A DNA stretch of 64,000 nucleotides. Source: Nitrospirota bacterium (GTDB taxonomy: Bacteria > Nitrospirota > Nitrospiria > JACRHA01). Below, piece after piece: positions 58,205 to 59,002 of the stretch; the stretch's first letter is position 1, and every line of letters starts with the position of its first letter. The stretch is from contig JACRHA010000056.1 of assembly GCA_016234185.1 (NCBI GenBank), positions 5,553 through 69,552 of the forward strand, read 5' to 3'. Both the position numbers and the translations under genes were made by a program. Below the pieces are notes generated by a model. It did no database searches and was not told the DNA's origin. It was given only the letters and a program-made list of their open reading frames with translations.

Positions 58205-59002
58205 ATGTCTCGCGGGATATTCATTACAGGGACAGATACGGGTGTAGGAAAGACAGCAGTTGCGGCTGGGATTGCAATGATGCTCAAAGAGAAGGGGATC
58301 AACGTAGGCGTGATGAAACCCATAGAGACGGGATGTAGGGTTAAGGAAGGGCGAATAAAAGCCCCTGGGATAGAACAGCGAGCGCAGTCGAGCGTAGGGA
58401 GGGGGAGGCTCCATCCGGCTTTGCCGGTGGAGGGGGATGGTCGCTCCCCTGGGATCGACGGGAGCTTTCTAATAGATGCAGCCGGGGTATCGGATGATCC
58501 TTCCCTGGTCACCCCCTATCAACTTAAGTATCCTCTTGCGCCGATGGCCTCCGCAGAGATGGAAGGGGTCAGTATAGACCTTCAAAGGATAAGTGCTGCC
58601 TATAACCGCCTCTCTTCTTCCCATGACTTCATGGTGGTTGAGGGGATTGGGGGGCTTATGGCGCCTATCATGGATGACATATTCATATCTGATCTCATCC
58701 TCCTGCTAGATATTCCCATAATGATTGTTACAAGGGTATCACTCGGCACCATAAACCATACTCTTCTTACGATAGAGCATGCCAAAACAAAGGGGATCAG
58801 GATAGAGGGGTTGATAACAAACATAAACAAGAAGGAGACAGGATTGGCGGAGGAGTCAAGTATCAAGATGCTTAAAAGACTCTCAGGGATAGATAGTATT
58901 CATATAGTGCCATTTATCGAAGGACTTGATATAGAAAATAGAGAATTTGGCAGGCTCAGGGAGGTGTTCTGCGAGATACCGATTAGCCTTAAATCAGCTT
59001 AA
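58205..59002 (+). CDS. bioD: Dethiobiotin synthetase carrying an in-frame hairpin-repeat insertion
   Basis: [10 protein letters not shown]-loop and the E..GIGG region. An extra roughly 28 aa ([25 protein letters not shown]) is encoded by the repeat at 58376-58452. Confidence 0.8.
58376..58456. repeat. Hairpin repeat copy inserted within bioD, flanked by the direct repeat CCCCTGGGAT (58362-58371 and 58447-58456)
   Basis: Core GGGAGGGGGAGGCTCCATCCGGCTTTGCCGGTGGAGGGGGATGGTCGCTCCCCT. The flanking 10-bp duplication is consistent with a target-site duplication. Confidence 0.75.

Follow-up and report, generated by a model that had tools for sequence, protein, structure and literature searches.

The best-known case of in-frame "selfish DNA in proteins" is Rickettsia, an obligate intracellular bacterium whose housekeeping genes contain, in frame, the Rickettsia palindromic elements (RPEs) (Ogata et al. 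2000 Science, as described in PMC10969869). Intragenic copies of repetitive extragenic palindromes (REPs) carrying a GTAG or CGTC tag have been found in several phyla, where they add 20 to 30 residues to their host proteins; repair genes, uvrA among them, are frequent hosts (Di Nocera et al. 2013, PMC3733652). A CGTC REP is defined by an 8 to 9 bp stem that starts with A/T pairs, a 4 to 5 nt loop, a CGTC tag, and a CCA tail (PMC3733652). Here, we analyze a 64-kb stretch of DNA from a Nitrospirota bacterium (64,000 nucleotides of contig JACRHA010000056.1; the window), whose bioD gene, encoding dethiobiotin synthetase (DTBS), carries an extra coding segment. Very probably, this segment is one copy of a modular palindromic repeat with three hairpins, inherited within the gene and remodeled in frame as a tolerated loop of the protein, and the repeat family extends the phenomenon to free-living, uncultured Nitrospirota and other environmental bacteria.

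A palindromic repeat is inserted in frame in bioD

The bioD gene is a single uninterrupted open reading frame (ORF) of 265 codons, and its product is identical to the dethiobiotin synthase of an NCBI metagenome-assembled genome (MAG) entry labeled "MAG: Nitrospirae bacterium" (P0001), for which Pfam family PF13500 is given. Sequence motifs, PDB matches, PF13500, and the AlphaFold2 fold all identify this protein as a BioD: the ORF has the P-loop GxxxxGKT, the KP(V/I)xxG strand, and VVEGIGG of the (V)EGxGG type, keeps the invariant columns with all catalytic motifs intact in the alignment, and matches the DTBSs of the PDB with E = 5.6e-19. The repeat is built of three hairpins (P1, P2, and H3), a G-rich linker, and a tail, as described below, and its parts in bioD are as follows; "filled" and "empty" denote orthologs with and without the insert, and L-numbers denote the loci compared.

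58205–59002, + strand: bioD (DTBS) coding sequence bearing the insert (ORF listing, identical MAG protein, PDB DTBS matches, AlphaFold2 fold)
58349–58365, + strand: upstream H3-like hairpin module GGGCGAATAAAAGCCCC; 16 of 17 bases equal the H3 variant GGGGCGACTAAAAGCCCC of L005, L006, and L078
58352–58453, + strand: repeat-derived coding segment, codons 50–83 (alignment to filled and empty orthologs at the protein and DNA levels; AlphaFold2 confidence)
58362–58374, + strand: left direct-repeat copy, 10-mer CCCCTGGGAT and 13-mer CCCCTGGGATAGA; upstream H3 stem end plus tail
58376–58394, + strand: P1 module CAGCGAGCGCAGTCGAGCG; a direct-repeat version here, a covarying 5 to 6 bp hairpin in other lineages
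58395–58406, + strand: G-rich linker TAGGGAGGGGGA (copy alignment)
58407–58435, + strand: invariant 29-nt core GGCTCCATCCGGCTTTGCCGGTGGAGGGG with hairpin P2, CTCCA(T)CCGGC-TTT-GCCGGTGGAG (exact matches, consensus fold)
58432–58449, + strand: H3 hairpin of sub-type 2, GGGGGATGGTCGCTCCCC; GGGGA/TCCCC stem, compensatory to GGGGC/GCCCC of other copies
58446–58458, + strand: right direct-repeat copy, CCCCTGGGAT and CCCCTGGGATCGA; H3 stem end plus family tail, running into the Ile84–Asp85 codons
58457–58459, + strand: GAC codon encoding Asp85, a residue invariant among 86 BioDs and placed two positions past the insert

An earlier note, made from the letters of this DNA alone, had read the repeat at 58376–58452 as interrupting bioD after KPIETGC, where E. 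coli BioD has a short loop, and as leaving the frame and the downstream part intact. All of this holds. The interruption, between KPIETGC and IDGSFL, is seen in the ORF, in the ortholog alignments, and in the match of a family profile (nhmmer, built from 117 distinct repeat copies) to 58374–58455 with E = 2.8e-15. E. coli BioD aligns with the window protein in two blocks, query residues 1–51 and 96–206, with only a short loop between them, and DTBS matches lie on either side of the insert in the 265-residue ORF. The repeat-derived segment takes the place of ≈4 native residues (VSFP) found in the empty ortholog L003.

Orthologs of bioD are filled or empty at the same site

We compared the DNA of seven orthologous bioD loci (L001–L007). 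Among the nearest BioDs, those of 258 to 306 residues have extra residues at exactly the insertion point and those of 226 to 232 residues have none; every BioD that is ≤53% identical to the window protein lacks the insert. In five Nitrospirota relatives, this codon position is likewise filled. The insert of L001 (92% protein identity) is that of the window, L004 shares the window's H3–linker–P1–P2–H3 layout with sub-type-1 hairpins, L002 and L006 contain one unit each, and L005 contains two tandem units, the first of which is in the other reading frame. Two loci are empty, L003 (...TTCCCG|ATTGAC|GGT..., protein GCTVKDGVSFP|IDGRFL) and L007 (...GGTTGG|ATAGAC|GGC...). The segment is thus lineage-specific, as the earlier note had supposed. 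In the filled orthologs, the Ile–Asp codons are provided or restored by the unit's tail (..CCCCTGGAATAGAC), and a displaced copy of the native Ile–Asp site persists upstream as PVD or PLD; the peptide LHPALPVEG is conserved in all of them. The length variants of bioD, at least six in number, all differ by whole codons (+25 to +70 residues).

The ratio of nonsynonymous to synonymous divergence (dN/dS) outside the insert is 0.17 to 0.30, pairs of filled orthologs included, and the host gene is under purifying selection. In each half of bioD, L003 is nearest to L005 (96.6% and 89.1% identity), and it forms a sister group with it in a neighbor-joining tree with 87% bootstrap support; the bootstraps of the deep nodes of this tree are unreliable, and we use only this pairing and the pairwise identities. 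Given this closeness to a filled ortholog, the empty site of L003 would most simply be a clean secondary loss, with segregating alleles or recombination as alternatives.

The L006 bioD gene (1863–2639) is ≈93% identical in DNA to its relatives 5′ of the repeat and ≈72 to 85% identical 3′ of it, a drop that points to a breakpoint of recombination in or close to the repeat. An estimate from L006 that would make the insertion older than a synonymous divergence of ≈1 is weakened by this anomalously divergent 3′ half (72% vs. 93% upstream).

The insert is a low-confidence loop in the predicted structure

An AlphaFold2 model of the window BioD, built on 86 sequences, has a mean predicted local distance difference test score (pLDDT) of 87 and a predicted TM-score of 0.85, and adopts the DTBS fold (TM-score 0.90 to E. 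coli DTBS, 1dbs). The pLDDT falls below 50 solely at residues 51–79, between strand 34–37 and helix 84–93, and is 90 or more elsewhere; the insertion point is the loop between strand β2 (KPIETG) and helix α2. The insert is probably translated as a ≈30-residue disordered surface loop that the enzyme tolerates. It ends at Gly83–Ile84, immediately before the invariant Asp85, which corresponds to E. coli Asp54 by alignment. We take Asp54 to be part of the Mg2+ site, a role for which our literature search gave no documentation. The dN/dS values, intact motifs, and confident fold together suggest that BioD is functional with its insert, as had been proposed.

The repeat is a modular, three-hairpin family in the window and in metagenomes

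Repeat finding, BLAST, and the profile reveal ≈10 full copies and several partial ones in the window. Three full copies lie in ORFs (bioD, bioF, and a cheA-like gene) and the remainder are intergenic, so that the family, like the RPE class, is a multicopy palindromic repeat found both between and within ORFs. The core motif GGCTTTGCCGG matches 14 times in the window against ≈1.0 expected. A scan of metagenome contigs for the exact 29-mer GGCTCCATCCGGCTTTGCCGGTGGAGGGG returned at least 120 contigs (loci L008–L127), with GC fractions of 0.41 to 0.70 among the matches listed, and ≈120 copies were aligned with those of the window. These contigs come from soils, peat, and groundwater; L126 and the bioD locus L004 originate from Hainich groundwater samples. 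Full-text literature searches for the core string found no description of it, and a search for such repeats in Nitrospirota found nothing.

The unit is ≈75 to 95 nt long and modular, in the order P1, G-rich linker, P2 core, H3, and T.TAAT(AGAY) tail, with an optional leader, (A/G)GTAGATACC or ..ATCTACC. P1 has the form CAG-arm-loop-arm-G; its arms form a direct repeat, GCGAGC..GCGAGC, in the lineage of the window and in others pair as a covarying hairpin of 5 to 6 bp, for which nine or more different stems are seen. The linker has the consensus (T/A)(T/G)GAGGGGGA, and the P2 hairpin is followed by GGGG. H3 is a 5-bp hairpin, GGGGC-GACGCRA-GCCCC, with the compensatory stem GGGGA...TCCCC in sub-type 2 (also at 53839–53856 and 53951–53968, − strand) and the loop GACTAAAA in sub-type 3. 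Every copy has the CCCC at the end of H3, and the tail consensus T.TAAT that follows it (T 74%, T 61%, A 71%, A 88%, T 54% in 131 copies) runs into ATAGA or ATCGA in 32 of these copies. Terminal inverted repeats are absent, as the 5′ end, (GTAGATACC)CAGCGAGC, is not complementary to the 3′ end, GCCCCT.TAAT, and the palindromes are internal. Folded as a single RNA sequence, 58350–58470 is no more stable than its shuffles (z = −0.72), and the structure of the repeat is supported solely by the comparison of copies. The unit consensus, read by eye, has no stops in five of six frames.

Modules also occur in other arrangements. An extra H3 often lies 5′ of the unit (53809–53825 and 55059–55075 in the window; L004, L060, L064, and L078), and same-strand, head-to-tail tandem copies are found at 53728–54110 (all minus) and in L005, L063, L100, and L120. 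The 53728–54110 cluster comprises three to four units plus partial modules between two minus-strand genes. Its unit at 53832–53940 has a nested 27-nt palindrome, GCTTCGACGCTGAGCTCAGCCGAAGCG (≈53880–53906), between linker and P2, and the same palindrome is present in the second bioD unit of L005.

All 11 window copies considered are co-oriented with the local genes, as are 75 of 105 neighbors at the metagenome loci by a crude ORF-based count. Many copies stop 5 to 20 nt 5′ of a Shine–Dalgarno sequence and start codon in the same orientation (for example, L056, L064, L103, and L124; 53733 and 5895 in the window). A scan of 52000–61000 found no sigma-70 promoter or intrinsic terminator within the repeats, with counts at or below shuffle expectation, which leaves the idea of a mobile promoter or terminator unsupported. 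The 29-nt core is identical in all of the bioD orthologs that carry it even though the synonymous divergence of the host gene is 0.16 to 0.5 or more, and the element may thus have a constraint of its own or undergo gene conversion.

In-frame copies occur in other genes

Further intragenic copies in the window and in the metagenome loci are listed here.

56273–56347, + strand: 75-nt in-frame copy in bioF (56242–57480), codons ≈11–35, with a 9-bp direct repeat, TTAAAGCGA, at 56267–56275 and 56342–56350
52160–52395, − strand: composite in-frame copy in a cheA-like ORF (50431–52773), with unit 52222–52302 flanked by a 65-nt direct repeat
L014: DUF4388-DnaJ protein
L020: adenosine deaminase
L037: UvrA, two copies
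L049: P450
L094: methylmalonyl-CoA mutase
L120: Fer4/CCG protein, two tandem copies
L121: DabA, the sole verified antisense copy
L081: HAD hydrolase
L086: phosphodiesterase

In L014, L020, L037, L049, L094, L120, L121, and the window CheA, the copy has Pfam matches to its left and right or falls inside one; L081 and L086 have them on the N-terminal side only. The bioF copy begins directly after the overlapping bioB stop codon, in a frame that differs from that of the bioD copy; the site is empty (MFPGEISRLKGKGLLRRLL) in L001, the closest relative with 93% DNA identity, and in L002, L005, and L006, with L001 bioF having a single TTAAAGGGA. In L005 (GCA_040960765.1), bioB contains a 93-nt in-frame insert (1016–1108) near the BioB C terminus (..GIRE...IDVFG..) that consists of an 84-nt unit, GTAGATACC...CCCCTGAG, and a 9-bp repeat, ATAAGAGAG; this site is empty in the window, L001, and L002. 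Methylmalonyl-CoA mutase is filled in L094 (P0136) and empty (AVKAGLD|VDEIAPQ) in relatives including P0137 (78% identity), and one relative has a decayed copy; the L094 mutase has its nearest named relatives in entries labeled Deltaproteobacteria. For bioD, bioF, bioB, and methylmalonyl-CoA mutase, the reading frame is preserved and orthologs without the insert exist. The cheA copy lies in the linker between the Hpt (6–97) and dimerization (222–281) domains; its unit, QRADASVEGKAPKALPLEGATQAP, has a core hairpin with the compensatory change CCGGC/GCCGG to AAGGC/GCCTT, and the flanking 65-nt repeat encodes NESGSQETSASSVEPSGVR twice.

Of the more than 10 copies in genes other than bioD, none breaks the frame or contains a stop. 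The unit is read in two frames, one in bioD and another in bioF, which places the conservation at the nucleotide rather than the peptide level and argues against a function of the peptide. A peptide search with a 41-residue repeat-encoded query returned 15 short "hypothetical proteins" called on intergenic copies and nothing else. The longest ORF of the gene at 5905–8769 (+ strand) begins inside a repeat copy (5905–5976), and its true start is probably an ATG at ≈5977 (MDHKLSQ.., signal-peptide-like).

The direct repeats flanking the bioD insert derive from the element

The 10-mer CCCCTGGGAT occurs exactly twice in the 64 kb, at 58362–58371 and 58446–58455, 84 bp or 28 codons apart (0.39 expected; two or more matches in 5 of 100 shuffles), and, when one mismatch is allowed, the direct repeat is 13 bp long (CCCCTGGGATAGA/CCCCTGGGATCGA). 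The earlier note placed both copies correctly and took them for a 10-bp target-site duplication (TSD); its in-frame, lineage-specific, mobile-type insert stands, and the TSD in that form is not supported. The right 10-mer is made up of the last four H3 stem bases (CCCC) and the six-base tail and falls within the profile match. The left 10-mer follows the upstream H3-like module of sub-type 3, which with its flanks shares 26 of 30 bases with the L006 unit's 3′ end (GAAGGGCGAATAAAAGCCCCTGGGATAGAA vs. GAGGGGCGACTAAAAGCCCCTGGAATAGAC, the latter reading EGRLKAPGID). In the filled L002, L005, and L006, the native left flank is TCTTTTCCG|GTAGAT, without CCCCTGG. The empty sites, CCG|ATTGAC in L003 and TGG|ATAGAC in L007, do not contain CCCCTGGGAT, and the empty site with this 10-mer that the note had called for was not found among these loci. 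A 10-mer belonging to the element at other copies had been named as the observation that would tell against a TSD, and the 131-copy tail consensus largely provides it. By these alignments, the 10-mer is the element's own terminus, the H3 3′ end plus tail, seen twice because an H3 module flanks the P1–P2 body on each side, and not a transposition footprint; the layout is that of L004 minus the native AWPLD/SFPVD residues.

These observations make a single transposition very improbable. It would have set a 74-nt element between two copies of a native target, CCCCTGGGAT (P-G-I), leaving AAAGCCCCTGGGATCGACGGG as the empty site. An exact 10-bp repeat at only two places in 64 kb, a spacing that is a multiple of three, and short flanking direct repeats at two young insertions of the family (bioF and bioB) would agree with such an event, but the CCCC and T..-AT tail belong to the consensus of the element at other copies, a recognizable H3 module precedes the left copy, the flanks of the filled L002, L005, and L006 and of the empty L003 and L007 do not have the required sequence, and the native loop of relatives reads VSFP rather than KAPG. 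A two-step origin we judge unlikely, though worth some weight. Here, an older copy would have left an H3 and tail, reading ...GGGCGAATAAAAGCCCCTGGGATAGACGG... when alone, and a P1–P2–H3 unit would then have inserted at ...CCCC|TGGGATAGA|, duplicating the 9 bp TGGGAT(A/C)GA, with the additional CCCC identity stemming from the two H3 stems. The flanking repeats are exactly 9 bp at both insertions that have clean empty sites, bioF (TTAAAGCGA) and L005 bioB (ATAAGAGAG); both bioD tails share an atypical TGGGAT where relatives have TGGAAT; and the H3 module upstream differs in sub-type from the one downstream, a sign that they may have arisen separately. On the other side, the ancestral bioD insertion, as seen in L002 and L006, has no recognizable 9-bp duplication, just GTAGAT versus ATAGAC, the element ends inferred under a 9-bp TSD differ among the three cases, L004 has the same layout with tails that do not match, and tandem duplication or gene conversion would explain the identity equally well.

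The remaining alternatives concern what the segment does. A hyperconserved core and the co-orientation of all window copies would fit a role at the RNA level, in which the element is processed out of the mRNA or cleaves it; this, or a bioD that is a decaying pseudogene, would mean that no working enzyme comes from the segment. We hold either to be highly unlikely, as the six or more bioD length variants and the more than 10 copies elsewhere are all in frame and stop-free, a state that is required only if they are translated, dN/dS between insert-bearing orthologs is low (0.17–0.30), the catalytic motifs are all intact, and a scan of the whole window at Rfam gathering thresholds found no family, self-splicing or other. 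Scarcely credible is a selected addition to BioD, such as an interaction or regulatory loop, that merely resembles the repeat. The segment is kept across several lineages with LHPALPVEG in every filled ortholog, but the same nucleotides are found in intergenic DNA, in unrelated genes, and in the other frame in bioF, which puts the conservation at the DNA level; moreover, its length and flanks vary freely among orthologs, the close relative L003 manages without it, and AlphaFold2 shows no structure for it.

A proposed history of the bioD insert

We infer the order of the remodeling events and the way in which the unit moves from the comparison of copies and loci. As an intragenic copy of the palindromic repeat, the bioD insert would derive from a small, nonautonomous mobile or recombining element that this Nitrospirota genome has in abundance and that is widespread among environmental bacteria. 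In bioD, an ancestral unit would have inserted in the sense direction immediately 5′ of the native ATAGAC (Ile–Asp) codons and then been inherited in several related lineages with the frame kept, while an extra H3 module, tandem duplication, partial deletion, and sub-type switching remodeled it. Since the insert is open in this frame, it would be read through as a ≈30-residue loop. Two simple modes of insertion were rejected as general models: an IS200/IS605-type insertion 3′ of TAGAT without duplication fits L002 bioD and not the 9-bp repeat of L005 bioB, and a fixed 9-bp TSD fits bioF and bioB and not the ancestral bioD insertion.

Several points weigh against this history. An all-against-all BLASTP of 1,993 ORFs from 120 loci found no recurrent transposase-like cluster near the copies, only housekeeping families, in a search that covers the window and the locus fragments and that a single-copy REP-associated tyrosine transposase (RAYT) elsewhere would escape; the case for mobility thus comes solely from filled and empty sites. 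Two H3 modules explain the TGGGAT shared by both tails no better than a 9-bp TSD or a duplication arising locally would. The element may be under DNA- or RNA-level constraint, or homogenized by gene conversion, rather than passive. Translation of the segment and BioD activity are read from the gene, the host genome is a MAG and may have a second bioD elsewhere, and an end two residues before an invariant Asp appears an awkward spot for 30 extra residues, for which a low pLDDT is no proof of a harmless loop.

Neighboring genes and unrelated repeats

A short-chain dehydrogenase/reductase (SDR, FabG-like) gene lies at 57477–58202 (+ strand) between bioF and bioD with 4-bp overlaps, and the order bioB–bioF–SDR–bioD is kept in L005, L006, and L007; bioA is absent from the biotin gene cluster of the window. 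A consensus sigma-70 promoter, TTGACA-16-TATAAT (12 of 12 bases), is found 5′ of bioB at 55227–55254 (+ strand). About 100 nt upstream of it, at 55102–55127 (+ strand), is a palindrome with an 11-bp stem, AGGTAGATACC-CGAT-GGTATCTACTT, whose arms are identical to the repeat's two 5′-leader variants (GTAGATACC/GGTATCTAC) and which could be a further mosaic module or an operator. A 300-nt direct repeat of 76% identity (40148–40447 and 46529–46828) lies in the minus-strand ORFs 40103–42133 and 46499–48139, which are presumably paralogous genes. A 31-nt direct repeat (14628–14658 and 19045–19075; 97% identical, 4.4 kb apart), AGGTAGCCGAATGAAGGC[A/G]AATTGGTATTAG, is unrelated to the main family.

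Discussion

A single repeat family decorates bioD, bioF, bioB, cheA, methylmalonyl-CoA mutase, uvrA, a P450 gene, and more, and the bioD case is well documented by filled, double-filled, and empty orthologs. With its end two residues from an invariant, putative active-site Asp, the insert provides a natural experiment on how much loop insertion an enzyme tolerates. The family also has practical consequences, as it breaks assemblies (L126 ends at a repeat) and yields spurious 40- to 60-residue "hypothetical proteins," called on intergenic copies in MAG annotations, as well as false N-terminal extensions; recognizing the repeat improves gene calling.

A more far-reaching reading, which we think decidedly unlikely, is that the repeat is an undescribed, very widespread structured element, either a hairpin-guided mobile or recombination system or a functional RNA or single-stranded DNA motif, that remodels housekeeping proteins. 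This reading takes in a core that is invariant across hosts of 41 to 70% GC while the neighboring hairpin covaries, the near-constant co-orientation with transcription, often 5 to 20 nt before a ribosome-binding site, spread without terminal inverted repeats or a nearby transposase, repeated landing just 5′ of ATAGAY or (I/V)-D codons, and an apparent clean exit in L003. If a new mobility mechanism or an RNA- or DNA-level function did lie behind the invariant core, the orientation bias, and the clean excision, the family would be of greater interest.

Comparison with known systems

The family resembles RPEs in its short, multicopy palindromes, which are found in intergenic DNA as well as, in frame, in housekeeping genes of unrelated function, and in having orthologs with and without the insert; RPEs are read through as an extra peptide judged compatible with the fold, as the present copies would be. 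The RPE host, however, is an obligate intracellular alphaproteobacterium and not a free-living Nitrospirota, and the unit described here is 75 to 95 nt long rather than ≈100 to 150, has three hairpins and an invariant 29-nt core, and is modular, head-to-tail, and nearly always co-oriented with genes. The likeness is one of functional class, by description, with no sequence relationship apparent. Like GTAG and CGTC REPs, the family has entered a uvrA gene (two copies in L037), has covarying stems, and places most copies between co-directional genes. Those REPs are single 20- to 40-bp hairpins with a terminal GTAG or CGTC tag, mostly in inverted (head–head) dimers, whereas the present unit spreads three hairpins over 75 to 95 nt without a tag beside the stem (GTAGATACC is found in 8 of 47 5′ leaders, ≈5 nt from P1), forms same-strand tandem arrays instead of the inverted doublets of GTAG REPs and REP doublet hairpins (REPINs), and, unlike CGTC REPs, has G+C-rich stems, a TTT loop in P2, and no CCA tail.

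REPIN/RAYT systems (PMC3116915, PMC3337134) are likewise nonautonomous hairpin repeats without terminal inverted repeats that persist in lineages, with possible single-strand movement and a GTAG-like motif at one end, but the present family has no inverted REP doublet and no RAYT or recurrent transposase-like ORF near its ≈120 copies. Bacterial MITEs (transposable elements of the miniature inverted-repeat type) that overlap ORFs (Coxiella QMITE1/2, PMC5896051; ERIC; Correia) are also small, nonautonomous, and ORF-fusing, and the variable 7- to 11-nt direct repeats of QMITE2 (PMC5896051) recall the 9-bp repeats at bioF and bioB. In contrast to MITEs, the present unit lacks terminal inverted repeats, has no consistent TSD length among the insertions compared, and is far more conserved in sequence across hosts. 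The recombination of hairpin modules and linkers in differing orders, as in the 53728–54110 cluster, is shared with the bacterial interspersed mosaic elements (BIMEs) of E. coli, which are mosaics of REPs; BIMEs, unlike the present unit, alternate REP orientation and are extragenic. The unit acts like RPEs and intragenic REPs while failing the structural definitions of GTAG/CGTC REPs, REPINs, and MITEs, and it is a well-supported example of in-frame palindromic repeats rather than a new principle.

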